Origin: an uncultured Kordia sp.
Lineage (GTDB): Bacteria > Bacteroidota > Bacteroidia > Flavobacteriales > Flavobacteriaceae
DNA length: 64,000 nucleotides
Direction of reading: 5' to 3'
Assembly: GCF_947489565.1 (NCBI RefSeq)
Contig: NZ_CANLEA010000015.1
Location: forward strand, 70,410 to 134,409
Each line of letters starts with the position of its first letter. Position 1 is the stretch's first letter. Under the pieces are notes generated by a model, which did no database searches, had not been told where the DNA came from, and was given only the letters and a program-made list of their open reading frames with translations. The translations under genes and the position numbers were made by a program. Shown here piece by piece: positions 38,142 through 61,142 of this stretch.

Positions 38142-38200
38142 CAATACTAGGAAGATTTCTTAGTTTAAAAAAGAAATTATAGGGTGCAGAATAGGGTGCA
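38142..38200 (-). promoter_or_regulatory. Direct-repeat activator site plus -7 box
   Basis: Minus strand TGCACCCTA-ttc-TGCACCCTA (starts 38200 and 38188). TAGTATTG starts at 38149, 39 nt after the proximal repeat. Confidence 0.72.
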
Positions 38201-38218: not shown

Positions 38219-39889
38219 TTATATAGAGTTTATAAAATCGTCTAAAGAATCTTGTGCAGATAGATTTAATTTCTTTTTCAATCGAAAACGTGTCGATTTT
38301 ATGGCTTCTAAACTCGTTTTTCGAAGTTCAGAAATTTCTTTTCGAGACAATCCAAGCTTGATAAAAGAACAAACCTCAATGTCTGTTTTGGTTAAATTTG
38401 AATGTTTTTCGCGAAGTCGTTTTAGGAATTCATAATTGAGCGTTTCAATATTTTCTTTGAGCAATACTAGTTTTCCATCTTCTAGTTTATCGGCTTTCAA
38501 TTCAGCCAGAATTCCGGTTAAAGAAATCCCTTCTTCTTGTTTGGAAAGTTTGTTGAGGTTTTCGGTAATTTTTTCTTTGGTATTCAGATGTATGATCGTT
38601 TCTGCCACCAATTCTGAAATTTCCTCTTTTTTAGAACTGATTTCAGTACTCAATTGATCAATCTTTGTATTTAGTTGTTGTGCTTCTAGTTGTTTTCGAA
38701 GGCGTAATTTTTTAAAATATTTACTTCCAAAATATACAATCGCAACAATGATGAATAAAGTAATGATCAACAATGCGAGATACCACTTTTTTTGAAGCGA
38801 CTCATTTTCTGTTTTAAGCATGAGTACATCTTTCTCTTGTGTAAACTGAATGCTGTCCATATAACGCTCTTTCTCAAAAGCATAGCTCAATTCTATTTCA
38901 CGAATTTCTTTAATCTTATCTAAATTTAAAATACTATCGCGTGCTTTGCTATACCTTCTGTAATCTTCCAACGCATTGTAATAATCTTTTAAATTATTGT
39001 AAATGAGACTTCTTCTTCGAAAAGACAAAAAATACCGACGTCCCATTTTTTCAGTTTTGGCAATATTCAGCGATGTATTTATATGAAATAATGCTTTGTC
39101 GTATTCTTTTAATGAGATGTAAATTTTTGTAATATTATAATGAGAAGCCGCAATCGCCGTTTTTTTTCCAATTTTAGTTACATAAGCGAGATTTTTTAAT
39201 TGCAATTCCAGCGCTTCCTCGTATCGTTTTTCTCTAACATACAAGTTTCCAATATTTGACATTACTTGATGAACGCCTTCTTCATAATTTGCTTCCTTAT
39301 AGTGAGTTAAGGTTTTATCAAAAAAATACTTTAAAGAATCTATTTCAGTATCATCTTTGTACGCTCTTGAAAGTATATTGTAATTATGACCAATACTTCT
39401 TGGACGTTTTAATTTTGTATTGATTGTAATGGCTTTGCGGAGTATTTTTTTAGCTTTTTCAAATTCTTTTTGATAGATAAGCACATTCCCAATATTATTA
39501 CAACTAGAAGCCAAACCTATGGAATCGTTGTATTTCTCAAAGATTTTTAAGGCTTTGTAATAGTCTCGTAACGCTTCAGAATAATTAGCACGTCTTCTCT
39601 GAATTAAACCAGATTGTTGTAAAATTTCGGCTTCATGTAGTTCCGAATTGTACTTTTTTGATGAAGATTTAATGATTTTTCGAGCTTCGTTTAAGTATGC
39701 AGACACACTATTAAAATCGCGTCGCAATTGATAATCTCCTAAGGTAAGATAAGCGGAAACTTTGAGTGAATCGTTCGGTGCTTCTGCTACTATTTTTTCT
39801 AATGCCACTACGGTGGAATCTTTCTCTTGTGCAAAACTCACTGCAGACTGCAATAGAAAAGCCATAAAAAGAAGACAATAGCGGCGCAT
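38219..39889 (-). CDS. Membrane-anchored TPR sensor with C-terminal LuxR-type HTH
   Basis: Signal peptide, TPR array, TM helix WYLALLIITLFIIVAIVYFG, coiled coil, and HTH LTKTDIEVCSFIKLGLSRKEISELRKTSLEAIKSTRFRLKKKL. Confidence 0.88.
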   Translation of the reverse strand: MRRYCLLFMAFLLQSAVSFAQEKDSTVVALEKIVAEAPNDSLKVSAYLTLGDYQLRRDFNSVSAYLNEARKIIKSSSKKYNSELHEAEILQQSGLIQRRRANYSEALRDYYKALKIFEKYNDSIGLASSCNNIGNVLIYQKEFEKAKKILRKAITINTKLKRPRSIGHNYNILSRAYKDDTEIDSLKYFFDKTLTHYKEANYEEGVHQVMSNIGNLYVREKRYEEALELQLKNLAYVTKIGKKTAIAASHYNITKIYISLKEYDKALFHINTSLNIAKTEKMGRRYFLSFRRRSLIYNNLKDYYNALEDYRRYSKARDSILNLDKIKEIREIELSYAFEKERYMDSIQFTQEKDVLMLKTENESLQKKWYLALLIITLFIIVAIVYFGSKYFKKLRLRKQLEAQQLNTKIDQLSTEISSKKEEISELVAETIIHLNTKEKITENLNKLSKQEEGISLTGILAELKADKLEDGKLVLLKENIETLNYEFLKRLREKHSNLTKTDIEVCSFIKLGLSRKEISELRKTSLEAIKSTRFRLKKKLNLSAQDSLDDFINSI

Positions 39890-39971
39890 TTGGTAAAATA
39901 TTAGGGTTAGGATAAATGTAAGTGAAAGTCCTTACAAAAGCAAAAAAGGATGTGTAACAGCAAAATGATTT

Positions 39972-41390
39972 TTAAAAAACCAAAGGAATCACAAACTGAA
40001 AAAATACGATGAGTAAAATGATTGAAATAATGTTCAATAAAAAACCAGCACGCGCCATTTGTGCTACTTTTACATGACCACTGGCGAATACAATGGCGTT
40101 TGGCGGCGTGGACATCGGCAACATAAATGCACAACTAGAAGCCATAGTCACAGGAATTAAAATATGTAAAAGTTCAATATTCAATCCTATAGCAACACCT
40201 GCAACCATAGGAGCAAAAATGGCAATCAAAGCAACATTACTCATCAATTCGGTCATAAATAACATAACAGCGATTAAAATGCTGCAAATAAGCAATATGC
40301 TTAAGGAAGTATTGTTGCTCACAGCAGCTCCGATCATATCAATAATTCCAACATTCGATAAAGCGCTTGCTAAGGCGAGTCCGCCACCAAATAATAATAA
40401 AATTCCCCAAGGCAATCGTTTGGTATCTTCCCAAGCTAATACAGCCGTATTTTTGTGCGTACATGTAAAACAAGCAAATGCAGCAAGCATACTAATTGTA
40501 GTATCACTTAAAGCTAAATTTGGGAATAGACTGTTGATGTAATTTTTTCCAATCCAAAGTACAATTGCAGTGATAAAAATAATCAATACAATGACTTCTG
40601 ATTTGCTAATTTCACCAAGTTTCTTCATCTCTGCATCAATGATATCTTTCGATTTTTCAAACGAAGCCAAATGGTTTGGATACATCACTTTGGTTAAAAT
40701 ATAATAAATAAAGAAGAGCATAATAATGGCAAACGGAAGTCCAACAATGATCCACTTTAAAAAGGAGATACTATAATTATATTCGCTTTCCATAAAACCA
40801 GCCAATACAATATTTGGTGGCGTTCCAATTAAGGTTGCAATACCGCCAACATTTGCAGAATAGGCAATTCCCAACATAATACTCAACGCAAAGTTTCGAT
40901 CTTTTTTGGTAAAACCATCTTCATCATGAATCAATAATTCGATGACAGAATAGGCAATAGGAAGCATGACAACGGTGGTTGCTGTATTGCTAATCCACAT
41001 ACTTAAAAATGCAGTCGCCAACATAAAACCGAGAATGATTTTGTTGGGACTTGTTCCTGTGAGTTTGATGATAGACAAAGCAACGCGTCTATGTAAGTTT
41101 ACTTTTTCTAACGCTAATGCTAATACGAATCCGCCAAAAAACAGAAAAATGATCGGATGCCCATAATTCACAGCTACTTCTTTGATCGGCATAATACCTA
41201 ATAAAGGATAAAAAGTCAACGGAATTAACGCAGTAATAGAAATAGAAACTACTTCTGTAATCCACCATAAAATCATCCATAAAGCGACTCCAATTACTTT
41301 ATCAGCTTCAGGACTGATGAATTGAAATGGACTGAAAAAAAACAGCAAACAGATAACAGGACCTAAAACAAGAATTAATTTTTTCTTCAT
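39972..41390 (-). CDS. DASS/SLC13 sodium:dicarboxylate or sulfate symporter
   Basis: FLFFGGFVLALALEK, FLSMWISNTATT, ATLIGTPPN, LLFGGGLALA and AFMLPMSTPPNAIV. The start at MKKKL (41390) is preferred over 41411. Confidence 0.93.
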   Translation of the reverse strand: MKKKLILVLGPVICLLFFFSPFQFISPEADKVIGVALWMILWWITEVVSISITALIPLTFYPLLGIMPIKEVAVNYGHPIIFLFFGGFVLALALEKVNLHRRVALSIIKLTGTSPNKIILGFMLATAFLSMWISNTATTVVMLPIAYSVIELLIHDEDGFTKKDRNFALSIMLGIAYSANVGGIATLIGTPPNIVLAGFMESEYNYSISFLKWIIVGLPFAIIMLFFIYYILTKVMYPNHLASFEKSKDIIDAEMKKLGEISKSEVIVLIIFITAIVLWIGKNYINSLFPNLALSDTTISMLAAFACFTCTHKNTAVLAWEDTKRLPWGILLLFGGGLALASALSNVGIIDMIGAAVSNNTSLSILLICSILIAVMLFMTELMSNVALIAIFAPMVAGVAIGLNIELLHILIPVTMASSCAFMLPMSTPPNAIVFASGHVKVAQMARAGFLLNIISIILLIVFFQFVIPLVF

Positions 41391-41504
41391 AGTTGCAAAG
41401 ATGGTGATCAAAAAAAATGATTCATCAGAAAATCATTCACACTGCAAAATATAAAAATGAAAACTTTTTTATGAGAAAACCTTAGATTTTATACTGAAAT
41501 AATA

Positions 41505-41539
41505 AAAAATGCCACCGTAATTGCTTCGATGACATTTTT
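41505..41539 (-). terminator. Intrinsic terminator after the GGCT-like gene
   Basis: Minus strand aaaaatgtcatcg-aagcaatta-cggtggcattttt. Confidence 0.7.
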
Positions 41540-41567
41540 CGATCGTTAAACTAAAAATGGTATATAT

Positions 41568-42209: not shown

Positions 42210-42282
42210 AGTAATGTGAATTTGTACACTTCCAAATTTAACAGTGTACACATTACATTGTATGCGTATTTCTACGTGATTT

Positions 42283-43944
42283 TTAGAAAAGTTTCTTGAT
42301 AAATAATTCCAATTCTTCGCCTTTAGGAACTTCTAGTTTTTTGCGAATGCGATATCGAGCAGACTTTATAGAAGAAAGTGTGGCATTGCGCACATTCATG
42401 ATTTCTTTCAGATTTAAATTTAGATACATTAAATGACAAATTTCGCGTTCTGCTTTGGTAAGATCAGGAAAACGTTTGGCCAATTGGATTTCAAAATTAG
42501 CTTCCGACATATTGTTGACTTCGGAGACACTATCCAATCGTTTTTCAGTGCTGATTTGGTTTTTAAGTTGCATTAAGATGCTTTGATAACTATCTACAAC
42601 ACCCAAACTACTATCTTTTGTTTGCAATACTTTAATGGTGTCTAGCAGTTCTTTTTTAAAATCGATACGCATCTTATTATCCATCAACAATCGCTCTGTT
42701 TTATAGCGTAAAAAATTTACTTTTTCATTCAACAATTCAGTCTCTAACTCTTGTTTTTGACGATTTCTAAGATTAATTTTTCGTTTATATCGATACAAAA
42801 GGAATAAACTAACCAAAGCTAGTAGTGCAAGGAAAAATAAAACCGCAAACAAACGTTTTTGTGCGCGTTGCGATTGGGCAACTCTTTGTAATTCTATTTT
42901 CTCTGTAGATGCTTGTAAACTATCACGATATGCTTCTTGTTTGAACTTAAATTCTAAAGCTAATTTTTCAAAACGTTCAGACTGTTCTATGGTTCTAGAA
43001 GAGTCTCTATATCTTTTATAAGTCCTGTAAAAAGATAAGGCTTTTTTATAATTTTTTTGATCACGTTCAATTTTATAGCGCTCCAAATACAATCGACCCA
43101 ATAATATTTTATTTCCATATTGAGTCGCCAATACTTCACTACTGTCCAAATATTTTGATGCTGCATCGAATAGATTCATTTTTCGAGCATTAAAAGCTAA
43201 ATCTTTCATCGTAGAAGCCAATCGCTCTATCTTTTCTTCTTTTTTATAAATGACAAGATTTTGCTTGTGAAGCTCAAAAGCTTTTTGATACATTTTTTTT
43301 GACCTGTATACTTTCGCTTTATATCTTATTACATCTGATAAATAAAGAGACTGGGTAAAATAATTTTTGGCACTGTCTAAAACGATAAGTGCACTATCAA
43401 GTTCTTTTTTTAAATATAAAAAGTGTCCATAATTGTTTAGTGATACTCCATAATCTAAACTATCATTACGTCGCATTACCAAAGCTTTCTTCATATAGGA
43501 AATGGCTTTGTCATACTTTTTTTGTGAACGAAATAACATGGCAATATTATGGTACGAACGTCCAATTTTTGAGGAATCTTTGGCTTTTTCTTTAATTTTG
43601 AGCGATGTCAAGTAATACTGCAATGCTTTATCATAATTATTACGTCTGCGTTCAATAATTCCTAAACAATCGTAGGCGAGTGCTTGCTGTGTAGCTTTAT
43701 CAGAAAAAGTATATTCATTCTCTAATATTGTCAGTGCATTTTTAAAATATTCAGAAGCTTTAATCGGATCAGAAGTATCTATTAAAACTCCTAAATCGAT
43801 AGTACGCGAAACACGTAACGAATCCGAAGAAGTTGTTTCTAACAAAACAGTGAGCGAGTCAATTTTTTGTTGCTTATTTTGAGCGTAACAAAGCAATGTT
43901 ACACTAAAAAATAGTACTAAAAATAAATAAGACTGCTTTTTCAT
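42283..43944 (-). CDS. Membrane-anchored TPR sensor with C-terminal LuxR-type HTH (divergent from the 2821-aa gene)
   Basis: Signal peptide, TPRs, TM helix LFAVLFFLALLALVSLFLLY, and HTH LTKAEREICHLMYLNLNLKEIMNVRNATLSSIKSARYRIRKKL. Confidence 0.88.
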   Translation of the reverse strand: MKKQSYLFLVLFFSVTLLCYAQNKQQKIDSLTVLLETTSSDSLRVSRTIDLGVLIDTSDPIKASEYFKNALTILENEYTFSDKATQQALAYDCLGIIERRRNNYDKALQYYLTSLKIKEKAKDSSKIGRSYHNIAMLFRSQKKYDKAISYMKKALVMRRNDSLDYGVSLNNYGHFLYLKKELDSALIVLDSAKNYFTQSLYLSDVIRYKAKVYRSKKMYQKAFELHKQNLVIYKKEEKIERLASTMKDLAFNARKMNLFDAASKYLDSSEVLATQYGNKILLGRLYLERYKIERDQKNYKKALSFYRTYKRYRDSSRTIEQSERFEKLALEFKFKQEAYRDSLQASTEKIELQRVAQSQRAQKRLFAVLFFLALLALVSLFLLYRYKRKINLRNRQKQELETELLNEKVNFLRYKTERLLMDNKMRIDFKKELLDTIKVLQTKDSSLGVVDSYQSILMQLKNQISTEKRLDSVSEVNNMSEANFEIQLAKRFPDLTKAEREICHLMYLNLNLKEIMNVRNATLSSIKSARYRIRKKLEVPKGEELELFIKKLF

Positions 43945-43989
43945 TGAAAACTTCTATAAAGTCTGTAAAAGTACTACTTTTTTAAGATT

Positions 43990-44046
43990 TGCGACCATTT
44001 GCTACCTTATAAAACAATGCTTTTTTTGGTTTTCAACCTAAGTTTG
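43990..44046 (+). promoter_or_regulatory. Direct-repeat activator site plus -7 box
   Basis: TGCGACC at 43990 and TGCTACC at 44000 (10-nt period). A perfect TAAGTTTG starts at 44039, 39 nt after the proximal repeat. Confidence 0.72.
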
Positions 44047-44067
44047 CAAAAAATAAAAATTGTTCTC

Positions 44068-47000
44068 ATGCGAAACCTACTTTTAAGCGTATTCCTATTT
44101 TTTTGTGTGTCCCATATTGCATATTCTCAACATTTTGAGTTTTTTATTGAAACCACTACTCAAAATGAAACCTTCACCATACCTATTGATGGTTCTTTAA
44201 CTTACAACTATAATGTTGATGTTGTTGTTCCTTTTAATCCTAATGCCACTGTTTCTTATACGAATGTTACAGGAGCCCTAACGCACACTTTTGGAAATGC
44301 AGGGTCTTATATTATTAGAATACTAGACGGAAGTTTGTTTCCAAGAATAATTTTTTCTAACAGTCCAGACAAATCGAAGATAACAATTATATCGAAGTGG
44401 GGAAATAACCCTTGGACAACTATGGAGTCTGCTTTTGAAGGCTGTGATAACTTAATCCTCGATACTAGTGATACTCCAAACCTTACTAATGTAACGTCTA
44501 CTAATAAAATGTTTAAAGACGCTGATGCTCTTGTCGATAATAGGAATAAAATAGGGTCATGGGATATGAGTAATGTAGAAAATATGTCACAAATGTTTCG
44601 TAATTGTGATGTATTTAATGAAGATTTAAGCAATTGGGATACTAGTAACGTAGAGACCTTTACCCGAATGTTTCAAGATGCCAGTGCATTCGATCAAAAT
44701 CTTGGTAATTGGGATATAAGTAATCTAAACTCAGGAGGGACAGATGCTATATTTGCACAAGCAGGTGTTTCAACAAGTAATTATGACCAAACTGTGACTG
44801 GATGGGGAACGCTAGATACAGGAGAAACACAAATTCCAAGTGGATTAAATATTAGGTTTGATAACAGTACGTATTGTGCATCGCAGGCAATAAGAACAAC
44901 ATTAGCGAATGCTCCCACGAATTGGAATTTTATAGATAGTGGTTTAAACTGTAATAATGTTTCTGATGATGGTCTTTTTATCACAACTTGGGAAACTACT
45001 ACTGCAAACGAATCTATTACAATTCCTACTGCTGGACCAGGATATGGGTATTATATAGATTGGGGAGATGGGCAAATAGACAATTCAGTTACAGGAAATA
45101 TTTCGCATACATATGCTAGCGCTGGTACACATAGAGTAAGAATAGGTGGTTTATTCCCTAGAATCTATTTTAACGAGACAGGAGATCGATTAAAAATTAA
45201 AACCATTGAACAATGGGGAACTATTGCTTGGCGAGATATGTTCAATGCGTTTGATGGATGCGAAAACCTGACGTACAATGCAACGGATGCCCCTAACTTA
45301 TCAAACGTAACTGATTTATCAAGAATGTTTAATAAATGTAAAAATTTCAATGCAACAAATTTGAACAACTGGGATTTGAGCTCTATTAGGTCTGTTACAT
45401 TTATGTTTAACGAAGCTGAAAAATTTAATGGAGATATCTCCAATTGGGATGTAAGTAATGTCATAGATTTTAGAAATATGTTTTCTTCGGCTCGTGATTT
45501 TAATAGAGATATTTCAGGATGGACAATTAACACGAATGAACCTGTAAACATGGGAGGAATGTTTGCTGGAGCAAGCGACTTTAATCAACCCATAGGAAAT
45601 TGGAATATAAGCCAAGTGACAGATATAGGTTTTATATTTCAAGATGCGCTAAATTTTAATCAAAGTTTAGCCAATTGGGATATTTCAAACGTAACCGATA
45701 TGGATGGCATGCTTAATAATTCAGATCTATCACTAGAAAATTATGATGCTACATTGATCGGTTGGGCAACTCTAGAAAACGGGGAAACTCAAATTCCTAC
45801 GGGCATTACTTTTAGCGCGTTTGGACTCTCTTTTTGTCAAGCATACAATGAAAGAAGTATGTTAGAAAATGCACCATACAATTGGATCATTACAGATGCA
45901 GGACCTGAATGTTCTGATGTAGCTTTTATCACCACTTGGCAAACCACTAGCGCGAATGAAAGTATCGAAATTCCTACCGATGGCAATGGATATAACTATG
46001 TAGTCAACTGGGGAGATGGAACTTTTGATACCAATATTACAGGAAATGCCACGCATACATACGCAACTGCAGGAACGCATACGGTTGAAATTTTTGGAGA
46101 TTTTCCTAGAATTTATTTTAATAATAGTGGAGATAAAGACAAAATCAAGTCCATAGATCAATGGGGAACAATTCAATGGGTAAGTATGGCTGCTTCATTT
46201 CGAGGGGCTAGTAACTTAAGACTTCTTGCTACAGATGTACCAGATTTATCTGGAGTTACAAGCACTGGATCTATGTTTGCTGGTTGTACCTCTTTAGAGA
46301 GTCCAGATTTATCTCATTGGGATATGTCTGCTATAAGAATTATGAATCTTATGTTTTTTGGTGCGACTAATTTTAATGGTGATGTTACAGGCTGGGATGT
46401 AGGGAATTGTACTGGATTTGCATGGTTTTTTAGAGAAGCTAACGCATTTAATCAAGATATAAGCAACTGGAACATAGGGGAAAATGTAGGTTCGAATGAC
46501 ATATTCATGGATGGTATGTTTGAATCTGCTAGTAATTTTAATCGAAACTTAGCAAGTTGGAATATTTCCAATGTTGTAGATATGACTAATATGCTTGATA
46601 ATTCTGGATTATCTGTAGATAATTATGATGCTACGTTAATAGGTTGGGCTACTTTAGATGCGGGTGAAACTCAAATTCCTTCTAATATCAATGTAGGAGA
46701 AGTTGGTTTACAGTATTGTGCTTCTGTAGTGGAACGTACGAGTTTAAAAAATAGTAATAATTGGTCATTTTTAGATGCAACTTTAGCTTGTCCCGAGGAA
46801 GACAAATTTATTATGGTATGGAAGACCACATCTAATAATGAGAGCATTAGATTTCAGTTTACGGGGGCTACGGGTAATAATAATAGTTATACTGTAGATT
46901 GGGGTGACGGCACTGTAGATAACGATGTTTCTGGAAATAGACAACATACCTATGCGCAAGCAGGAACTTACGAGGTGAAACTATCGGGAGAATTTAGATT

Positions 47001-50000
47001 TAGATACAATAACTTGTCTGCCGCTACCTCAACAAGATTAAAACTTTATGAAATTAAACAATGGGGAGCCAATCAATGGACGAGTACTGCCCAAGCCTTT
47101 TACGGATGTGAAAATTTGAAAATCACAGCGACTGATGTGCCAGACTTAAGTTTGGTAAGTAATATGGAAGATATGTTTAGAAACTGTAATGCACTAAAAG
47201 ATTTAGGAGGCAAAATGGGATCTTGGGATGTAAGTAACGTAGATAATTTTTCTTCAATGTTCCAAGGAGCAAATAACTTCGACACACACTTAGGAAATTG
47301 GAATCTTAGCAATGCTATGGACATGAGTAATATGCTAAATGGTTCAGGACTTTCCAGCGGTTCGTATGATTTAACGTTAGTGGGTTGGCGAAACAATCCA
47401 AATACACCTTCAAACATCAATTTAGGCGCTTCTGGACTCACCTATTGCAATGCTGTAAGCGAACATGATTATTTAGACAATGATTTAAACTGGTCATTGA
47501 ATGATGCGGGTCTTAATTGCCCTACGGACGAGCCTTTTATCACCAAATGGGAAACAACCACAGCTAACGAAACGATTACAATTCCTATAGAAACGAACAT
47601 TTTAAACCCAATAATTTATAATTACTATGTAGATTGGGGAGATGGTTCGCCAATAACATTTGAAACAGGAGAAGCAACCCATGCATATGTCACCGCAGGA
47701 ATCTATGATGTAAAAATTACGGGGGAATTTCCTCAAATACGCTTTGAAAATTCTACTACCAGCAATAGAAACAAAATACTATCTATTGAACAATGGGGAA
47801 CGATTCAGTGGAGAAACTTCTCAAGAGCTTTTAGAGGTTGTTCCAATATTGTGATAAATGCTACCGATATTCCAGATTTAAGCAGTGTAACAAGTCTGCT
47901 TTATATGTTTGAAGGAACAAGTTCTTTGGTTGATAATGGAGGACGTATCAATGACTGGGACACAAGTACTATAACCCAAACAGGTTATATGTTTCAAAAT
48001 TCTTCGTTTAATGAAGATATAAACAATTGGGATGTAAGCAATGTTACATTTATGGGCTTTATGTTTAGAAATAATACAAACTTTAACCAACCATTAAACG
48101 ATTGGGAACTATCAGAGAATGTAAGTCTTTTTGAAATGTTCAAGAATGCTACTGCGTTTAATCAAGATCTTGCAAGTTGGGATATTAGTGGCGTAAATAG
48201 TATGGGAGGCATGCTAGACAATACAGCCATGTCTATGGAAAATTATGACAATACTTTAATTGGCTGGGCAACTTTAGATGCTGGCGAAACACAAATACCA
48301 GCAGATATAAATTTAGGAGCTGTAGGTCTTACCTATTGTAATAGTGAAACCGAAAGAGGACTTCTAACAGGAACTACCTATAATTGGATAATCACGGATG
48401 CTGGAAAAGACTGTGATGCTATTTCATTTATTACGACTTGGGAAACCACAACTGCCAATGAAACCATTACGATTCCTACGTTTTCGGGAGATCCGTATGA
48501 TTACACTGTAGAATGGGGCGATAATACAGCTGATACCAGTGAAACAGGAGATGCGACGCATACCTATACAACTCCGGGAATTCACACAATAAAAATTAGA
48601 GGAACGTTTCCAAGAATATTTTTTGATGATGCAGCCGCAGATAAAAACAAAATCTTAACAATTGAACAATGGGGACCAAATCAATGGACAACCATGAGTC
48701 GTGCCTTTATGGGATGTACAAATTTAGTCCTAAATGCAGATGACAGTCCAGATTTAAGCAGAGGCGGAACTTCTACAATACGATTACAACAAATGTTTAC
48801 CAACGCCAGTAATTTGGTTGATTTAAAAGATCAAATTGGAAATTGGGATGTAAGCAACGTGGTGAATATGTGGGCGACTTTTGGCAACTGTACTTTATTT
48901 AATGAAGACATTAGTGGTTGGAATGTTTCTGGAGCTACTAGTTTGCTTCAAATGTTTGTAAATAATCCAAACTTCAACCAAGATTTGAGCGGATGGAATA
49001 CTAGTAACGTTCAAAATTTTTCTGCGATGTTTGCAGGAGCAGCTGTTTTTAATCAGAATATTAGTGGTTGGAATACCAGCAATGCAACAAATATGAATGC
49101 TATGTTTATAGATGCAGCTTCCTTTAATCAGGACATTAGTGGTTGGGATGTTTCCTCTGTACAACGAATGGACAAAATGTTTCAAAACGCTACAGCATTC
49201 AATCAAAATATCAGCGGTTGGAATGTTTCCTCAGTACAGCGAATGGACAGAATGTTTCAAAATGCCACAGCTTTCAATCAAGATTTGAGTAATTGGGACA
49301 TCAGCAGTTTAGGAAGTAGTGTGACGTTTACAGAAAGTGCAGAATTTATGTTTTTTGATGCTACGGCATTCAGTACTGAAAATTATGATGCATTGCTTTT
49401 AGGTTGGTCTACGGATAGTAGTGGCAATGCTACGGATGGAGATGACGATATTCCTTCAGACATAGTATTCGAAGGTCCTCCAACAACCTATTGTCCGGGA
49501 GCAGCAGGAATAGAAATTTTAACCGATATGCCTTATAATTGGACAATCAACGGTGGAACAGAAGACTGTGAAAGCGTTTCTTTTATCACTACATGGCAAG
49601 TAGGTGCTAATGAAACCATAGTAATTCCTACGTTTCCTGGAGCTACCTACGATTATAGAGTAGATTGGGGAGATGGAACGGTAGATACCAATCAAACTGG
49701 CGATGCTACACATACCTATACTAATGCAGATGTGTATACGGTAAGTATTAGTGGAACATTTCCAAGAATTTATTTTAATAATGACCTTTTAGTAGACAAT
49801 GTAACGCCTCGTCCAAACGGATCAAAAGATAAGCTGTTAACTATTGAACAATGGGGACCAAACCAATGGACAATTATGCACAGAGCTTTTCAAGGTTGTA
49901 GCAATCTCGTATTAAATGCAGATGATACGCCTGATTTTAGCGGAGTGACAACTATGGGCATTCATCAAATGTTTCAAGGCGCTACCAATTTTGAAGATTT

Positions 50001-52464
50001 AAAAAATCAAATAGGAAATTGGAATGTAAGCAATGTTGTCAATATGTATGCAACCTTTGGAGGATGTGAAGTATTTAATGAAGATATTAGTGGTTGGAAT
50101 GTTGCTAACGTGAGTAATTTTCTTCAAACATTCGTTGGCGCACTTCGATTTAATCAAAATATTAGTGGTTGGAATACCAGCAGTGCAATTACCATGTCTA
50201 CCATGTTTGCCAATACGGAGGATTTTAACCAAGATATTAGTGGTTGGAATGTGTCTTCTGTAGAGCAAATGCAATACATGTTTGCCAATACAACTGCCTT
50301 CAATCAAGATATAAGCACTTGGGATGTGTCTGCTGTACAACGAATGAACAACATGTTTCAAAACGCAGCAGCATTTAATCAAGACTTGAGTAATTGGGAT
50401 ATTAGTAGTTTAGGAACTAGTGTAACGTTTACGGAAACCGCTGAAAATATGTTTCAAAACGCAACGGCATTCACTTCAGAAAACTATGACGCATTGCTGA
50501 TTGGTTGGGCAACAGATAGTAGTGGGAATGCAACTGATGGAGACGACGATATTCCGTCAGATATCATCTTTGCCGCAGCACCAGAATATTGTTTAGGTCT
50601 GAGTGCAAGGAACATACTTACCAGTACTGCGTACAATTGGGCAATTACGGATGGCGGACAAAATTGTGATTTTACAAATGCTTTTATCACTACTTGGGAA
50701 ACCACCACAGCGAATGAAAATATTACGATTCCAACTACAGGATCAGGATATAATTATGTTGTAGATTGGGGAGATGGAATTATAGAATCTGGATTTACAG
50801 GAAGTGCAACACATGTTTATACAACAGCAGGAATCTACACGGTAAGCGTGATAGGAGACTTTCCAAGAATCTATTTTAATGGAACAGGTGATAAAGACAA
50901 AATAAAATCTATTGAACAATGGGGAGCACAAGAATGGACTTCTATGAAAGAGGCTTTTCGTGGTTGTGAGTTTATGGCAATCAATGCAACAGATAGTCCT
51001 AACTTGAGCCAAGCTACAGATTTGTCTAGAATGTTTGTGATTTGTAAACAAATCGAAACCGCAGATCTTTCCAATTGGGATACGTCTACCATTACAAATA
51101 TGTCGGCGATGTTTAACCTTTCTCGTTTTAACGGAAATATTTCAACTTGGGATGTAGGGAATGTAACCAATTTTAAAGGAATGTTTAAAAGTGCAACACG
51201 TTTTAATCAGGATATTTCACAATGGAATATTGGTGAATTTGTAACTGGTTTTATTGATATGTCTGAGATGTTTCAATCTGCTCTTAATTTCAATCAATCC
51301 TTAAACACTTGGGATGTTAGTAAGGCAGATCGAATGCATTTTATGTTTGATAGAGCATTAAGATATAATCAACCCATGAACAATTGGGATGTATCTAATG
51401 TCATCTTTATGAATGAAATGTTTGATGGCGCGCGTAATTTTAATCAAGATTTATCTTCGTGGGATATTAGTACTGTAGATACCTTTGTAAATTTCTTAAC
51501 AGGCTCAGCAATGTCTCAACAAAATTATGACAATACTTTAATTGGTTGGGCTACTATTGATGCTGGAGAAACGGGCCTACAAACAAATGTACGATTCGAT
51601 GCGGATGCTACCTATTGTTTAGCATTTGATGCCAGAGAAACACTAACATCAGCGCCATACAATTGGGATATTACGGATGGTGGACAATCCTGCGGAATCT
51701 TTCTTGCGGCAAAAGTGTATTTACAAGGAGCCGCTTTAAACCCAAACATGGGAGAAGAAAATCTCATGAGAGATGATTTACGTATAGCAAGTCTAATACC
51801 AACGACTTCACCATATGGAGACGGATTAACCTGTGATACAAGTGTTTTCAATACGACTGGAGCAAATGCTATTGTAGACTGGATTTGGATAGAATTAAGA
51901 GATAAAAATGATAATACATCCGTTTTACACAGTCAATCAGCATTGTTACAAAGAGATGGAGATATTGTAGCTACTGATGGAGTTTCGGTACTGTCTTTCA
52001 ATGCTGGTACAGATAACTATTTTATAGCTGTAAAACACCGAAATCACTTAGGAATCATGACATCAACAGCGCTATTAATCAATACAACTTCTGCTGATTT
52101 TAGCAATGCAAGCAGTCAAATTACCTTTGGAAACAATGCGCAAACGACTTCTGGAATGCCAAGTGGAGTAGTGGCGATGTGGTCTGGAAATACGAATAAT
52201 GATGCGGTTGTACAATACTCAGGAACCACACCAGATACACCTTCTGTTTTATCGGAAATACTAAACGATCCCGGAAACTTTTTGAATTTCCCAACGTATG
52301 CCGTAAGCGGATACAATGTAAATGATATCAATATGAATGGAAGTACACAATATTCAGGGACAAGTCCGGATACGCCGCTCATCTTACAAAATGTATTGGC
52401 ACATCCTGGAAACTTCTTGAACTTTAGTACGTATCAAATCACGGAACAGTTGCCAGAAAACTAA
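44068..52464 (+). CDS. Giant surface protein: 8 units of PKD-like domain plus BspA/DUF285-type repeats, then shared C-terminal domain
   Basis: Signal peptide from MRNLLLSVF (44068). FITTWETT..NE.ITIP...VDWGDG PKD units alternate with WDVSNVxNMxxMF repeats. AKVYLQGA...QITEQLPEN domain from 51697. Confidence 0.92.
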   Translation: MRNLLLSVFLFFCVSHIAYSQHFEFFIETTTQNETFTIPIDGSLTYNYNVDVVVPFNPNATVSYTNVTGALTHTFGNAGSYIIRILDGSLFPRIIFSNSPDKSKITIISKWGNNPWTTMESAFEGCDNLILDTSDTPNLTNVTSTNKMFKDADALVDNRNKIGSWDMSNVENMSQMFRNCDVFNEDLSNWDTSNVETFTRMFQDASAFDQNLGNWDISNLNSGGTDAIFAQAGVSTSNYDQTVTGWGTLDTGETQIPSGLNIRFDNSTYCASQAIRTTLANAPTNWNFIDSGLNCNNVSDDGLFITTWETTTANESITIPTAGPGYGYYIDWGDGQIDNSVTGNISHTYASAGTHRVRIGGLFPRIYFNETGDRLKIKTIEQWGTIAWRDMFNAFDGCENLTYNATDAPNLSNVTDLSRMFNKCKNFNATNLNNWDLSSIRSVTFMFNEAEKFNGDISNWDVSNVIDFRNMFSSARDFNRDISGWTINTNEPVNMGGMFAGASDFNQPIGNWNISQVTDIGFIFQDALNFNQSLANWDISNVTDMDGMLNNSDLSLENYDATLIGWATLENGETQIPTGITFSAFGLSFCQAYNERSMLENAPYNWIITDAGPECSDVAFITTWQTTSANESIEIPTDGNGYNYVVNWGDGTFDTNITGNATHTYATAGTHTVEIFGDFPRIYFNNSGDKDKIKSIDQWGTIQWVSMAASFRGASNLRLLATDVPDLSGVTSTGSMFAGCTSLESPDLSHWDMSAIRIMNLMFFGATNFNGDVTGWDVGNCTGFAWFFREANAFNQDISNWNIGENVGSNDIFMDGMFESASNFNRNLASWNISNVVDMTNMLDNSGLSVDNYDATLIGWATLDAGETQIPSNINVGEVGLQYCASVVERTSLKNSNNWSFLDATLACPEEDKFIMVWKTTSNNESIRFQFTGATGNNNSYTVDWGDGTVDNDVSGNRQHTYAQAGTYEVKLSGEFRFRYNNLSAATSTRLKLYEIKQWGANQWTSTAQAFYGCENLKITATDVPDLSLVSNMEDMFRNCNALKDLGGKMGSWDVSNVDNFSSMFQGANNFDTHLGNWNLSNAMDMSNMLNGSGLSSGSYDLTLVGWRNNPNTPSNINLGASGLTYCNAVSEHDYLDNDLNWSLNDAGLNCPTDEPFITKWETTTANETITIPIETNILNPIIYNYYVDWGDGSPITFETGEATHAYVTAGIYDVKITGEFPQIRFENSTTSNRNKILSIEQWGTIQWRNFSRAFRGCSNIVINATDIPDLSSVTSLLYMFEGTSSLVDNGGRINDWDTSTITQTGYMFQNSSFNEDINNWDVSNVTFMGFMFRNNTNFNQPLNDWELSENVSLFEMFKNATAFNQDLASWDISGVNSMGGMLDNTAMSMENYDNTLIGWATLDAGETQIPADINLGAVGLTYCNSETERGLLTGTTYNWIITDAGKDCDAISFITTWETTTANETITIPTFSGDPYDYTVEWGDNTADTSETGDATHTYTTPGIHTIKIRGTFPRIFFDDAAADKNKILTIEQWGPNQWTTMSRAFMGCTNLVLNADDSPDLSRGGTSTIRLQQMFTNASNLVDLKDQIGNWDVSNVVNMWATFGNCTLFNEDISGWNVSGATSLLQMFVNNPNFNQDLSGWNTSNVQNFSAMFAGAAVFNQNISGWNTSNATNMNAMFIDAASFNQDISGWDVSSVQRMDKMFQNATAFNQNISGWNVSSVQRMDRMFQNATAFNQDLSNWDISSLGSSVTFTESAEFMFFDATAFSTENYDALLLGWSTDSSGNATDGDDDIPSDIVFEGPPTTYCPGAAGIEILTDMPYNWTINGGTEDCESVSFITTWQVGANETIVIPTFPGATYDYRVDWGDGTVDTNQTGDATHTYTNADVYTVSISGTFPRIYFNNDLLVDNVTPRPNGSKDKLLTIEQWGPNQWTIMHRAFQGCSNLVLNADDTPDFSGVTTMGIHQMFQGATNFEDLKNQIGNWNVSNVVNMYATFGGCEVFNEDISGWNVANVSNFLQTFVGALRFNQNISGWNTSSAITMSTMFANTEDFNQDISGWNVSSVEQMQYMFANTTAFNQDISTWDVSAVQRMNNMFQNAAAFNQDLSNWDISSLGTSVTFTETAENMFQNATAFTSENYDALLIGWATDSSGNATDGDDDIPSDIIFAAAPEYCLGLSARNILTSTAYNWAITDGGQNCDFTNAFITTWETTTANENITIPTTGSGYNYVVDWGDGIIESGFTGSATHVYTTAGIYTVSVIGDFPRIYFNGTGDKDKIKSIEQWGAQEWTSMKEAFRGCEFMAINATDSPNLSQATDLSRMFVICKQIETADLSNWDTSTITNMSAMFNLSRFNGNISTWDVGNVTNFKGMFKSATRFNQDISQWNIGEFVTGFIDMSEMFQSALNFNQSLNTWDVSKADRMHFMFDRALRYNQPMNNWDVSNVIFMNEMFDGARNFNQDLSSWDISTVDTFVNFLTGSAMSQQNYDNTLIGWATIDAGETGLQTNVRFDADATYCLAFDARETLTSAPYNWDITDGGQSCGIFLAAKVYLQGAALNPNMGEENLMRDDLRIASLIPTTSPYGDGLTCDTSVFNTTGANAIVDWIWIELRDKNDNTSVLHSQSALLQRDGDIVATDGVSVLSFNAGTDNYFIAVKHRNHLGIMTSTALLINTTSADFSNASSQITFGNNAQTTSGMPSGVVAMWSGNTNNDAVVQYSGTTPDTPSVLSEILNDPGNFLNFPTYAVSGYNVNDINMNGSTQYSGTSPDTPLILQNVLAHPGNFLNFSTYQITEQLPEN

Positions 52465-52486
52465 CAATCAAATAAAAAGTAATTTT

Positions 52487-52716
52487 TAAAACCTGTTTAT
52501 ATTTAATGTGAGTTTGATAAATCTATATTTATCCAATTGATTTTAAGAGAATTACACAAAATGTCAAATCGAGCATTATTGTAAATACCGAGCGTAGCTC
52601 ACGAGATTAAATTGAAATGTATGTTTTTCTAGTGTTCTCGACTGCGCTCGAACTAACAAGCTGTTTAATATTAATGATTCTTACTTTGAACTCACATTAA
52701 ATATAAACAGGTTTTA
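52487..52716. mobile_element. 230-bp non-autonomous element (MITE/REPIN-like) with perfect 28-bp terminal inverted repeats
   Basis: taaaacctgtttatatttaatgtgagtt (52487-52514) is the exact reverse complement of 52689-52716. An internal degenerate inverted REP-like pair lies at 52589-52606 and 52636-52650. No ORF. Confidence 0.7.
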
Positions 52717-52762
52717 TAGTTATTTAGAAAACACTATTTCTTTATTTGTATGTTTGCAATCT

Positions 52763-54319
52763 ATGAAATACTCCTGCTTTCTTTTGGTATTACTTTTTAC
52801 CACTTTTTCTTTTTCACAAGAAATAGATACTACACTGGTACAACTAGAAGAAAAGTTAGCAAATTCAACTTCAGAGACAGAAAAGATAAAAGCAATGCTT
52901 GTGCTGGGCGAATATGAATTGGATCATAATTTTAGCAGAGCAGAATATATCATTACAGAAGCTTTTGATCTATCACAAAAAAATAAAAACGCTGTTACAG
53001 ATCATTACAAAGCTTTAATTCAAATTCAATTAGGAGTCTTAAAACGAAGAAAAAGTGAACATGCAGCAGCCATCAAACATTACCTAACTGCGTTGGACTT
53101 TTTTGAAAGAGAAAAAGATACGGCAAACATGGCCGATGTGTATCATAATATAGGAACCGTTCATAAATTTCAAAAAGATTTTACGGCTTCGTTTTCTAAT
53201 TATGACAAATCTTTACAACTCAATAGATCCATCAATAATAAAGAAGGAATTGCATTAGCATTACTCATGAAAGGAAGCAATTATAGAGCGCTAAAAAAGC
53301 TAGATTCTGCCGAAATTTATTATAAAAAATGCAAAGATATATTTGTAGCTATCAATGATAGCAAAGGTCTACAACAAGTCAATAATTTCTTGGTGTTACT
53401 CTATCTAAGAATGAATAAGGTAGAAGAAGCTTTGCAACTGAATCAAAGTAATATTGCGATAGCTAAAAAGAACAATGAAAAGTTAAACTTGGTGACCAAT
53501 TATATAAAGGCATCAGACATTTACTATAAAGAGAAAGAATATCGAATTGCAGGAAAATATATAGATTCAGCTTTAAAACTGTCTAAAAAAGAAGGATTCA
53601 AGGACAGAATTGCATTTGCGTATGGCAAGAAAAGCAGGTTATGGTATAAACTAGAAAACTATAAATCGGCTTATTTTTCACACCGAAAATACAAAAGCTA
53701 TTCAGATTCATTATTTAATATAGATAATACGAAGAAGATTCAGGAATTAGAATTAAAGTTTAAATTTCAACAAGAAAAACGAGAAGTACAGTTATTGGCC
53801 GATAACGAATCTGCGAAGAAAAAAATATATCTTATTCTATTTATCATCACACTTATATTGAGTGCTATTATTGCTTTTTTAGTCAAAAGAGATTTTAAAT
53901 ACAAAAAACGGCTGCTTGAATTAGAGAATAAAACTTTATTGCGAGAAAAAGAACAAATCACAAAAGCCTTCAATCAATTACAAAATAGTACAAATGCTGA
54001 AGAACGTATCAAAGCAAAGCAAGAAATACTAAAACTAAAAATTCTTACCGACGACGATTGGTTACATTTCAGAGATAAATTTGAATTGCTACATCCTAAC
54101 TTTTTCAATCTTTTAAAAGACAGTAATTTCCAATTCACAAAGTCAGAAATCCGATTCTTAATACTGAAAAAATTAGACTTAGAAACCAAAGAAATTGCAA
54201 ATATGACAGGAGTTTCTAACGATAGTGTATTAAAGACACAATACAGACTTCGCAAGAAACTTGACATTGCTAAAACCATTGAAATCATCAGTTTTCTTGA
54301 GCATTCTACTCAAAACTAA
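52763..54319 (+). CDS. Membrane-anchored TPR sensor with C-terminal LuxR-type HTH
   Basis: Signal peptide (MKYSCF start preferred), TPRs, TM helix IYLILFIITLILSAIIAFLV, and HTH FTKSEIRFLILKKLDLETKEIANMTGVSNDSVLKTQYRLRKKL. Confidence 0.88.
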   Translation: MKYSCFLLVLLFTTFSFSQEIDTTLVQLEEKLANSTSETEKIKAMLVLGEYELDHNFSRAEYIITEAFDLSQKNKNAVTDHYKALIQIQLGVLKRRKSEHAAAIKHYLTALDFFEREKDTANMADVYHNIGTVHKFQKDFTASFSNYDKSLQLNRSINNKEGIALALLMKGSNYRALKKLDSAEIYYKKCKDIFVAINDSKGLQQVNNFLVLLYLRMNKVEEALQLNQSNIAIAKKNNEKLNLVTNYIKASDIYYKEKEYRIAGKYIDSALKLSKKEGFKDRIAFAYGKKSRLWYKLENYKSAYFSHRKYKSYSDSLFNIDNTKKIQELELKFKFQQEKREVQLLADNESAKKKIYLILFIITLILSAIIAFLVKRDFKYKKRLLELENKTLLREKEQITKAFNQLQNSTNAEERIKAKQEILKLKILTDDDWLHFRDKFELLHPNFFNLLKDSNFQFTKSEIRFLILKKLDLETKEIANMTGVSNDSVLKTQYRLRKKLDIAKTIEIISFLEHSTQN

Positions 54320-54334
54320 AGACTTACAAAAAAC

Positions 54335-54392
54335 TGTCCAGTTTTTGTCTAGTTGCCAATATTAAAGATACGCGCTGTTTTTCGTAGTGTTG
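54335..54392 (+). promoter_or_regulatory. Direct-repeat activator site plus -7-like box
   Basis: TGTCCAG at 54335 and TGTCTAG at 54346. TAGTGTTG starts at 54385 (+39). Confidence 0.7.
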
Positions 54393-54397
54393 TAGAC

Positions 54398-54874
54398 ATG
54401 AAAAAAATATACTGTATTCTTTTTATAATTACATTGATCTTAGGTGTTATCATTGTGCTCTTTCTAAAGTATAAAAAACGACTACTTGAATTAGAAAACA
54501 AAGTCTTATTACAAGAAAAAGAACAAATAAAAACGGCGCTACATGAGCTCAAAAATGGTCCTAGTGATGAAGAACGCATCAAAGCAAAACAAGAAATTAT
54601 AAAGCTCAAAATTTTAATTGATGATGATTGGATTCGGTTTAGAGATAAATTTGAATTGCTCTATCCTAATTTTTTAAATACGTTGACGGCTTCAGAGTAT
54701 CATTTTACAAAATCTGAAAAACGATTCCTAATGCTTAAAAAATTAAATCTTGAAACCAAAGAAATTGCGAACATGGTTGGTGTTTCCAATGATAGCGTTT
54801 TAAAAACGCAATACAGACTTCGAAAAAAACTGGCTATTGATAAAACTACCGATATTATTAACTTTTTAGAGTAA
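54398..54874 (+). CDS. Sensor-less paralog: TM helix, coiled coil and LuxR-type HTH only (158 aa)
   Basis: MKKIYCILFIITLILGVIIVLFLKYKK...SNDSVLKTQYRLRKKL. It aligns with the C-terminal third of both flanking regulators. The frame is intact and directly follows a promoter. Confidence 0.78.
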   Translation: MKKIYCILFIITLILGVIIVLFLKYKKRLLELENKVLLQEKEQIKTALHELKNGPSDEERIKAKQEIIKLKILIDDDWIRFRDKFELLYPNFLNTLTASEYHFTKSEKRFLMLKKLNLETKEIANMVGVSNDSVLKTQYRLRKKLAIDKTTDIINFLE

Positions 54875-54944
54875 ACAATCATTTTTACACATAAATACTG
54901 AAAAATGATGTTCTATAATCAATTAGATTAGGTAATTTTAAACC

Positions 54945-56543
54945 ATGAAAAATGTCTTATTTGTTTTTATGCTGTGTATTTCTTTTACAGCTACTTCTCA
55001 AGAAATAGATACTACACTTGTACGATTACAAGAAAAACTGCATAACGCTCCATCAGATTCTATAAAGGTAGAAACATTACTAGACTTAGGAAAATATCAA
55101 TTTGGACGTGATAATTATAGTGCCGAAGATTACTTGCTAAAAGCCATTGATTTTATAGAAAACGAAGCGTATTCCTCCAATCATCAGTTGGCTGTAGCGT
55201 ATAGAGTTTTAGGTGCTGTAGAACGAAGAAAGGGAAATTATAAGAACACATTTACCAATTACTATAAAGCATTACGATTATCGTCAGAGCCAGAGCATGT
55301 GGCAACTGTTCATCACAATTTGGGTACAGCAAAACTTTTTCAATATGAATTTCCAGCAGCTATAGTTGAGTTTCGCAAAGCAATTTCTATTTGGGAAGGC
55401 GTACATAATTATGCAGATGCAGCTGGAAGTTATCATGAAATAGGCGGCGTATATCGTTCTATGCAACAAATGGATTCCGCCAGATTTTATTATGATAAAG
55501 CTTTAAAACTATTTGCCATAGGATACAAAGACGATACCCTAAAATATATAAATAGATATTATGGAATCCAGAAAAGTCTTGGATTGGTATTATTGAAAGA
55601 AAAAAAATATGACAGTGCGCTTTCTAAATTCAAAGAAGCAAGAAACCATTTTTCGAAACCCAATCATGATAAGAGTCGATTAATTATAATTAACAATAGT
55701 ATCTCAGAAACATATTACCGTAAAGGCAACTATAAAGAAGCAATTCGTTATGCAAACGAAGCCCTTTCTATAAGTATGTCAGAAGGTTTAAAACATCGTA
55801 TTGCTGCGGCTTTAAGAAGACGAAGCAGATTACACAAAAAAATGGGCAATCTCAATGCTGCCCTAGACGATTATGTATTGTATAAAAAATATTCGGACTC
55901 ACTGATAAATGCAGAAACGATAAAGAAGATTCAAGCACAGGAATTAAAGTATGTATTTGAAAAAGAAAAATTGGCCGATAGTATAACATTTGCACAAGAA
56001 AAAAGAAAAATTGAATTGGTTGCAGACAATGAATCTTCCAAGAAAAAAATATATTTTGCGCTTTTAATCATCACACTGATTCTCAGTTCTATAATTGCAT
56101 TTTTAGTAAAAAGAGATTTCAAATACAAAAAACGTGTCCTAGAATTAGAGAATAAAGCATTAGTACGAGAAAAAGAACAAATTACGAATGCTTTTAATAA
56201 ACTTAAAAATAGTACCAATGCCGAAGAACGCATCAAAGCAAAGCAAGAGATCTTAAAACTAAAAATTCTGACCGATGATGATTGGGTACATTTTAGAGAC
56301 AAATTTGAATTACTTTTTCCTGATTTTCTAACGGATATAAAAGACGCTAATTTTCAATTCACAAAGTCTGAAATTCGTTTTTTAATTCTAAAAAAACTAG
56401 GCTTAGAAACCAAAGAAATTGCAAATATGACGGGAGTTTCCAATGATAGTGTATTAAAAACACAATACAGACTTCGAAAAAAACTGTCACTTGATAAAAA
56501 TATTGACATAATTCACTTTTTAGAGCAATCCGCTGAAAACTAA
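54945..56543 (+). CDS. Membrane-anchored TPR sensor with C-terminal LuxR-type HTH
   Basis: Signal peptide, TPRs, TM helix IYFALLIITLILSSIIAFLV. The C-terminal ~170 aa are nearly identical to those of 52763-54319. Confidence 0.88.
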   Translation: MKNVLFVFMLCISFTATSQEIDTTLVRLQEKLHNAPSDSIKVETLLDLGKYQFGRDNYSAEDYLLKAIDFIENEAYSSNHQLAVAYRVLGAVERRKGNYKNTFTNYYKALRLSSEPEHVATVHHNLGTAKLFQYEFPAAIVEFRKAISIWEGVHNYADAAGSYHEIGGVYRSMQQMDSARFYYDKALKLFAIGYKDDTLKYINRYYGIQKSLGLVLLKEKKYDSALSKFKEARNHFSKPNHDKSRLIIINNSISETYYRKGNYKEAIRYANEALSISMSEGLKHRIAAALRRRSRLHKKMGNLNAALDDYVLYKKYSDSLINAETIKKIQAQELKYVFEKEKLADSITFAQEKRKIELVADNESSKKKIYFALLIITLILSSIIAFLVKRDFKYKKRVLELENKALVREKEQITNAFNKLKNSTNAEERIKAKQEILKLKILTDDDWVHFRDKFELLFPDFLTDIKDANFQFTKSEIRFLILKKLGLETKEIANMTGVSNDSVLKTQYRLRKKLSLDKNIDIIHFLEQSAEN

Positions 56544-56558: not shown

Positions 56559-56616
56559 TGTCCAGTTTTTGTCTAGCAACATGTAACTGTAATCACTTGT
56601 TTTACCCGTAGGTTTA
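56559..56616 (+). promoter_or_regulatory. Direct-repeat activator site plus -7 box
   Basis: TGTCCAG at 56559 and TGTCTAG at 56570. TAGGTTTA starts at 56609 (+39). Confidence 0.72.
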
Positions 56617-61037: not shown

Positions 61038-61142
61038 AATATTCCCAATTGTAAATTCCTGAAAAATGGAATCTAACTATGAATATAAACAAGACGAACC
61101 TTATTGTGTTAATCCGTTGAAAATTAAATATATGCTAAAAAC

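Follow-up and report, generated by a model that had tools for sequence, protein, structure and literature searches.

Membrane-tethered TPR-HTH proteins as probable one-component activators of adjacent giant genes in a Kordia genome

Transcriptional control in marine Bacteroidota is poorly understood outside the polysaccharide utilisation loci (PULs), and the described regulators that resemble those reported here act on such loci. BguR, the beta-glucan utilisation regulator of Formosa agariphila (UniProt T2KMC4), is a 940-aa protein in which a signal peptide, a propeller, a Y_Y_Y domain, a transmembrane (TM) segment and a linker precede a GerE domain (Bartosik et al., bioRxiv 10.64898/2026.01.10.698779). 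Its role as activator is proven genetically. A deletion mutant no longer grows on laminarin; in the wild type induction of the PUL exceeds 80-fold, and the DNA between the regulator and its first target gene contains a conserved motif (bioRxiv 10.64898/2026.01.10.698779). For the SusR-like regulators of Bacteroides direct repeats 67-77 bp apart have been predicted as motifs, and SusR activates adjacent genes, the starch and dextran PULs (PMC3878776). The principle of the system is known from BguR and SusR, and its architecture is not new. Here, we describe a stretch of 64,000 nucleotides ("the window") from an uncultured species of Kordia, a genus with algicidal members, in which four related regulators (reg1 to reg4) with tetratricopeptide repeats (TPR) and a C-terminal helix-turn-helix (HTH) domain adjoin genes for giant proteins. 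We consider it probable (about 0.75) that these regulators are tethered to the membrane and, as one-component systems, activate the giant genes beside them via regulator-specific tandem repeats.

The window regulators share with BguR the signal peptide, a periplasmic sensor, one TM segment, a helical linker, a C-terminal HTH that appears to be of GerE type and the lack of a phosphorelay. A hidden Markov model (HMM) of the HTH module matched a 934-aa Y_Y_Y protein of BguR type encoded in the same Kordia genome (3.4e-17), and hhalign of the output modules gave 98.6% (E 7.7e-16), the partner in this comparison being a protein of the same architecture and not BguR itself. The two systems differ in their sensors (tandem beta-propeller plus Y_Y_Y in BguR, a TPR solenoid here), in their targets (beta-glucan SusC/D PULs as opposed to giant LRR/DUF285/FG-GAP proteins) and in copy number, since BguR usually occurs about once per PUL and the TPR family 21 times in the Kordia genome. 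With SusR (BT3705), compared by its described architecture only, the window regulators share a Bacteroidota-specific membrane protein with periplasmic sensor and C-terminal cytoplasmic HTH, adjacent genes as probable targets of activation and direct repeats. However, the repeats of the Kordia loci are spaced by 10-12 bp, and giant genes take the place of the PULs. The preliminary description of this locus, made from the sequence alone, had likened the regulators to ToxR and CadC. In ToxR, CadC and TcpP one polypeptide also spans the inner membrane, converts periplasmic sensing into DNA binding and often uses direct repeats, but ToxR and CadC carry an N-terminal winged helix of OmpR type and a C-terminal sensor, whereas the order is reversed here and a GerE/LuxR-like HTH is combined with a TPR sensor. 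Because fold and topology differ, the likeness is one of function and not of descent, and BguR and SusR are much closer.

Three other groups of proteins share parts of the design. TPR sensor histidine kinases of FimS type from Bacteroidota (NF053520) align with the window regulators over about 400 residues comprising signal peptide, periplasmic TPR and TM segment (E 1e-11 to 2e-25). They work with a kinase and a separate response regulator, whereas the window regulators have no kinase and score far below the equivalog cut-off. The alignment with the BT3442 family (NF053779) spans the distal TPRs, the TM segment, the coiled coil and the HTH (208-547 vs 223-551 of the 563-position profile), but scores of 18-44 bits against a cut-off of 940 make the window regulators distant relatives and not members. 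BT_3442 itself heads a putative operon of uncharacterised, mostly predicted lipoproteins, which include MACPF and other candidate pore-formers (PMC2954219). RRNPP proteins (Rap/PlcR) and MalT/LAL also couple a TPR solenoid sensor to an HTH, but these are soluble proteins of the cytoplasm whose signals are imported peptides or ATP plus maltotriose, while the TPR domain here is extracytoplasmic and membrane-anchored. Our literature searches found no paper on membrane regulators of the TPR type.

The common topology of the four open reading frames (ORFs), which the preliminary description had proposed, was recovered from the ORF list, Pfam, the hydrophobic helix and an AlphaFold2 (AF2) model. Each protein starts with a signal-peptide-like N-terminus ending in an A/S-Q-E/N site, contains a single strong hydrophobic helix at about residues 358-389 that is followed by a K/R-rich stretch, and carries the conserved C-terminal segment LTK-E-(8)-L-L--KEI-(12)-YRLRKKL. 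TPR families were the only Pfam matches of reg1 to reg4, and the same scan returned no HisKA, HATPase or receiver domain, as had been stated before. The AF2 model of reg1 (input of 36 homologues, mean predicted local distance difference test (pLDDT) 83.8) begins with a signal-peptide helix and eight helix pairs resembling TPRs (25-320); an unbroken helix (323-451) then runs through the TM segment, and after another long helix comes a C-terminal bundle of four helices, the HTH (residues 501-555). With the full-length model Foldseek retrieved TPR proteins only, and the TPR part superposes on peptide-binding LGN and on phage Rap (phi3T Rap: TM-score 0.67, normalised to target; root mean square deviation 3.9 Å). 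When a profile of five C-termini was compared with the Protein Data Bank (PDB), LuxR/NarL/FixJ DNA-binding domains and sigma region 4 ranked at the top with weak E-values of 0.005-0.9 (best matches, both weak: EsrB 0.005 and StyR 0.01), and 6 of 36 family members match GerE (best 3.9e-9). The C-terminal bundle appears to be a divergent LuxR/GerE HTH, a label that is weaker by sequence.

The nearest database proteins of the regulators come from Kordia, followed by Aquimarina and Tenacibaculum, and nearly all are named merely "tetratricopeptide repeat protein". With the HMM of the HTH module we counted 21 family regulators in the Kordia genome. When the family and the phylum were sampled, the output module was present in 127 of 151 genera of the former and in 113 of 201 genomes of the latter. 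The proteins that carry it form two size classes (about 540-650 aa; about 935-985 aa), the longer of which is of the propeller/Y_Y_Y type. Elsewhere in Bacteroidota the periplasmic TPR module is fused to histidine kinases, PP2C phosphatases and cyclases.

Linkage of the family to giant genes extends well beyond the window. An ORF of at least 1400 aa lies within two genes of 14 of the 21 family regulators as compared with a background of 4.4% (binomial p 1e-14), a clustering beyond chance. The genome encodes 190 ORFs of more than 1000 aa, but the linkage concerns one class of them. A family regulator was found within four genes of 18 of the 29 giants that share a C-terminal domain of 257 aa, but of none of 27 giants with a T9SS (type IX secretion system) type A domain, none of 17 genes resembling non-ribosomal peptide synthetases (NRPS) and only 2 of 162 other ORFs of at least 1000 aa (all ORFs: 2.5%).

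In most family regulators the stop codon is directly followed on its 3' side by a tandem direct repeat, which consists of two TGNNNNNN half-sites 10-12 bp apart. The putative operators of the window and their -7 boxes are listed in Table 1. Using the Bacteroidota consensus TAnnTTTG with at least 5 of 6 positions as definition, a -7 box was located exactly 39/40 nt past the T of the second half-site at 13 of 15 loci of the genome, while the background at this distance is 3.2% per intergenic TG (P ~3e-18). In the promoters behind the repeats this -7 box is not accompanied by a canonical -33 element. When the whole genome was scanned strictly for the operator grammar, 64 matches were obtained vs 31 on the reversed sequence; 20 matches were intergenic, and 11 of these 20 were flagged by the script as having a family regulator nearby.

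Half-sites differ among the paralogues, and this variation follows that of the DNA-binding domain. In 32 regulator/site pairs from Kordia and other genera the half-sites diverged along with helix2-turn-helix3 (Mantel test, Spearman r 0.39, p 2e-4), and the outcome was the same when near-identical HTHs were removed. In orthologous cassettes of other genera the intergenic conservation is concentrated on the repeat and the promoter, and the flanking DNA has diverged. In the genome G340 two tandem sensors of reg1 type precede TGCACCCT-N4-TGCACCCT and a giant of 2879 aa; half-site and spacing at reg1 match those beside the orthologous HTH. A gene of reg2 type is divergent from a 2089-aa gene there, with TGCGACC occurring twice at the same unusual spacing of 10. 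In a further genome, G131, the module occurs 24 times, and regulators and giants again form cassettes, the giants carrying the C-terminal domain known from Kordia. Taken together, the specific tandem repeat 39-40 nt before the -7 box, the HTH co-variation and the conservation across genera support the earlier claim that a regulator controls the neighbouring giant gene.

From these data we propose the following mechanism. A cleaved signal peptide would place the solenoid of eight TPRs in the periplasm, and a single long helix would cross the inner membrane and extend into the cytoplasm as a coiled coil, about 100 residues long, bearing the divergent HTH of LuxR/GerE type. Binding of a ligand by the TPR domain would be signalled along the TM/coiled-coil helix, and two HTH domains, presumably of a dimer, would occupy the tandem TGNNNNNN repeat at roughly -62 to -43 of a sigma-A type promoter. 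Binding would turn on one or more downstream genes, with a Sec-exported giant repeat protein carrying the 257-aa domain as product. At this locus reg1 would switch on the 53-aa ORF and the 2126-aa gene, and reg2 the divergent 2798-aa gene. The different sensors of reg3 and reg4 would act on a single operator type, which precedes the sensor-less paralogue described below, the 1465/2240-aa and 2591-aa genes and a 270-aa T9SS gene. Activation rather than repression, binding as a dimer and a periplasmic ligand are what we infer; we favour an activator because the repeat sits upstream of the core promoter and because BguR, with the same output module, is a proven activator. The earlier suggestion that the sensors detect distinct peptide cues is consistent with the predicted TPR fold and with the divergence of the sensors.

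The adjacency of the regulators to giant genes, as claimed before, is real, but not every regulator has a giant of its own: reg3 is followed by a truncated copy, so that three giants and four sensors lie in the span, and the gene described as 2821 aa long most likely encodes 2798 aa. Nor does each sensor strictly have its own target gene, since reg3 and reg4 share the operator type TGTCCAG/TGTCTAG. Four copies of this site occur on the contig, before the sensor-less copy and before the 1465-aa, 2591-aa and 270-aa genes. The sensors of reg3 and reg4 are 34% and their output modules 79-85% identical; therefore, two different inputs would converge on one operator type. The 3' parts of reg3, the sensor-less copy and reg4, downstream repeat included, are 77-82% identical at the nucleotide level, which points to their origin by local duplication. 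Compared with reg4, the sensor-less paralogue has a dN/dS of about 0.10 with saturated synonymous sites, and is therefore an old gene under purifying selection and not debris. Located behind the shared operator, it could provide positive feedback or act as a dominant negative. Tandem sensor duplicates with nearly the same HTH before one operator recur in three genera (Table 1), which suggests selection for several inputs per target.

Several observations weigh against our interpretation. The genome-wide ORFs (6.4 Mb) came from a simple caller of our own. For six of the 21 family regulators there is no giant in the vicinity, and 10-11 giants that carry the shared C-terminal domain lack a family regulator close by. 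In Pfam none of the window regulators matches GerE (PF00196) at E<=0.01. LuxR-family dimers usually bind inverted repeats, and a parallel coiled-coil dimer on tandem sites therefore needs flexible linkers. The half-sites for the co-variation analysis were selected by eye, semi-manually, from the flanks before the HTHs were aligned, and shared ancestry of neighbouring DNA inflates the correlation, which we regard as supportive but not decisive.

Even in regulators that are cognate to the giants, the TPR domain might read something other than an external peptide. It could monitor the cargo itself or the state of export, for instance by way of the common C-terminal domain, an intermediate in the periplasm or a partner protein, and such feedback would match costly transcription to secretion capacity. 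TPR solenoids of this type bind protein segments, all regulated giants carry the one conserved 257-aa domain, TPR histidine kinases with a related sensor adjoin other giants of the same class, and the sensor-less copy under the same operator hints at built-in feedback. However, the sensor domains of the paralogues are only 24-34% identical, a divergence that agrees better with different ligands than with a single common domain, and in most genera the family occurs at 1-8 copies beside ordinary-sized genes and without giants. We regard cargo sensing as an unlikely but live alternative.

The direction of control has to be weighed too. Repressors or anti-activators might hold the tandem repeat and keep the giants silent until a signal or proteolysis clears them; the giants are probably expensive to express and off by default, proteolysis sometimes controls membrane-tethered factors, and the sensor-less copy could be a dominant negative. 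The position of the repeat upstream of the core promoter in fixed phase to the -7 box, in promoters that lack a canonical -33 element, is, however, the layout of an activator-dependent promoter, and BguR, with the same output module, is an activator, which leaves repression very improbable. It is even harder to believe that no regulatory link exists and that regulators, repeats and giants became neighbours by duplication of whole cassettes, the repeats being promoter-associated with another role. The local duplication of reg3, the sensor-less copy and reg4 with the repeat included would fit such a history, but the half-sites of old paralogues differ and track the HTH, they are kept across genera while flanking DNA is not, and the linkage is specific to one class of giants. 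Activation of the adjacent giant genes via the tandem repeats is the reading that we retain.

All giants of the window have Sec signal peptides, and together with their LRR, PKD, FG-GAP and DUF285 repeats this makes it plausible that they are surface proteins. The ORF list extends the 2798-aa protein to 2821 aa (TTG 43999), but the gene most likely starts at ATG 44068, which gives a product with a signal peptide. The matrixin-like domain of the 1465-aa giant includes HELGHTHQLAH (residues 422-432), a motif of metzincin type in which Q replaces the usual G, and behind it a Met-turn-like IMHY segment; the domain is possibly an active protease. With a gap of only 28 nt, the 2240-aa gene is probably co-transcribed with the 1465-aa gene.

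The 257-aa C-terminal domain, which ends in ...NFLNFSTYQI-EQLPEN, is common to 33 proteins of the genome (29 of at least 1000 aa) and occurs in hundreds of proteins of Flavobacteriaceae. It had no sequence match in Pfam, NCBIfam or the PDB, and its short members carry the NCBI name "hemagglutinin protein". A low-confidence AF2 model (pLDDT 66) has a beta-sandwich followed by two repeats that resemble DxNxDG/Ca loops, for which Foldseek returned weak X-module-dockerin matches (E 0.013-0.047) and a transthyretin-like sandwich. The domain may serve to anchor proteins at the surface or act as a new sorting signal. We rejected the idea that the giants are ordinary T9SS cargo of type A or B: in five giants, the final 150-300 residues matched nothing of T9SS type (TIGR04183, Por_Secre_tail) and nothing else of relevance in NCBIfam or Pfam. 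The 27 giants with a typical T9SS type A end are other proteins of the genome. Some giants that carry the 257-aa domain and lack a family regulator adjoin a TPR histidine kinase and a response regulator instead, and the kinase/LytTR locus of the window is such a two-component alternative to one-component control of the same class.

Several minor features complete the description. Two operator promoters are followed first by small ORFs, those of 53 and 48 aa, neither of which has a signal peptide, and a similar small ORF lies behind the operator of a locus on contig C10. The 53-aa ORF gave no significant Pfam match; behind the orphan repeat there is only the 48-aa ORF and no giant. The 270-aa protein, which is encoded outside the window, has its own TGTCTAG/TGTCCAG operator and a T9SS type A sorting domain; its gene is placed after the last giant of the cluster, and similar genes of about 270-274 aa follow giants at several other loci. 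We also considered the ~270-aa proteins as PorP/SprF partners and rejected the idea for the single one examined, a small protein that bears a T9SS type A sorting domain. The intergenic stretch separating the 2798-aa gene from reg3 contains an inverted-repeat pair with arms of about 28 nt (AAACCTGTTTATATTTAATGTGAGTT... and its complement) that are about 170 bp distant from each other and resemble the ends of a small MITE-like element (miniature inverted-repeat transposable element). Elsewhere, 17 ORFs of at least 1000 aa on contigs C3, C4, C5 and C15 have carrier-protein-like ends typical of NRPS and polyketide synthases (PKS), and the genome contains several large secondary-metabolite clusters, one of them at the start of the window's contig.

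Table 1. Coordinates of regulators, giant genes, putative operators and further features (window positions unless indicated otherwise)
Feature	Position	Strand	Description
reg1	38219..39889	-	556 aa; one-component regulator with signal peptide, TPR, TM segment, coiled coil and HTH
reg2	42283..43944	-	553 aa; architecture as reg1; divergent from its putative target giant gene
reg3	52763..54319	+	Architecture as reg1; ORF list prolongs start to TTG 52754
Sensor-less paralogue	54398..54874	+	158 aa; TM segment, coiled coil and HTH only; fifth copy
reg4	54945..56543	+	532 aa; architecture as reg1
reg1 putative operator	38179..38200	-	TGCACCCTAT twice, 12 nt start-to-start, directly after reg1 stop
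reg1-locus -7 box	38142..38149	-	TAGTATTG, 39 nt past T of second half-site
53-aa ORF	37950..38111	-	First ORF after reg1 operator promoter, upstream of 2126-aa giant gene
reg2 putative operator	43988..44007	+	TTTGCGACCA / TTTGCTACCT, spacing 10 nt, pointing at giant gene
reg2-locus -7 box	44039..44046	+	TAAGTTTG, 39 nt past second half-site
reg3 putative operator	54335..54352	+	TGTCCAG / TGTCTAG, spacing 11, after reg3 stop codon
reg3-locus -7 box	54385..54392	+	TAGTGTTG at +39; ATG of sensor-less copy 5 nt on
reg4 putative operator	56559..56576	+	TGTCCAG / TGTCTAG, spacing 11, after reg4 stop codon
reg4-locus -7 box	56609..56616	+	TAGGTTTA at +39
Orphan operator-like repeat	31241..31260	-	TGTCCCCC / TGTCTCCC, spacing 12, -7-like box at +39
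48-aa ORF	30992-31138	-	Behind orphan repeat
2126-aa giant	31552..37932	-	Secreted-type; FG-GAP, LRR; shared 257-aa C-terminal domain
2798-aa giant	44068..52464	+	13 DUF285/BspA-like repeats, PKD; signal peptide; shared C-terminal domain
1465-aa giant	56640..61037	+	TIG, matrixin-like domain, LRR; shared C-terminal domain
2240-aa LRR giant (start)	61066..63999	+	Follows 1465-aa gene; extends beyond window
257-aa C-terminal domain, examples	31555-32325(-), 51691-52461(+), 60264-61034(+), 29874-30644(+)		Short members: L049, L050
TPR sensor histidine kinase and LytTR response regulator	20955..23944	+	Kinase of 752 aa with FimS-like sensor; upstream of 1901-aa giant
201-aa protein and 1901-aa giant	24305-30647 (giant 24942-30647)	+	Giant with same 257-aa C-terminal domain
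270-aa protein gene	contig C15, 146426-147238 (L001:12017-12829)		Outside window
Inverted-repeat pair	52489-52516 and 52688-52716		Intergenic
Tandem sensor duplicates, Kordia	52763-56543		reg3/reg4
Tandem sensor duplicates, G340	C8; C1		627+551 aa (C8); 543+543 aa (C1)
Tandem sensor duplicates, G131	L042		576+557+582 aa

A wider picture, which we offer tentatively and ourselves find rather doubtful, is that Flavobacteriaceae employ modular, fast-diversifying cassettes of sensor, operator and giant adhesin. TPR receptors would read distinct peptide or protein cues from host, prey or kin, and an HTH/half-site code would wire each of them to its own operator at a fixed promoter phase. The giants would be displayed via an X-module/dockerin-like C-terminal anchor and not via T9SS, and reg3/reg4 with the sensor-less copy would form a logic or feedback circuit.

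Compared with the described systems, what is new here is the use of the TPR-sensor branch as probable dedicated switch for giant secreted proteins, together with the growth of this branch to 21 copies. New, too, are the precise operator-promoter grammar, the co-variation of HTH and half-site, the recurrent layout of two sensors with one operator, and the unannotated 257-aa C-terminal domain that marks the regulated giants. This locus and 12 sister loci suggest that the kinase-free SusR/BguR design likewise acts as the principal switch of many giant adhesin- or protease-like proteins in Kordia and relatives such as G131. The operator grammar, a tandem TGNNNNNN with a -7 box 39 nt on, is precise enough for prediction of regulons from sequence, and the roughly 30 natural HTH/half-site pairs could give a recognition code for this output domain.

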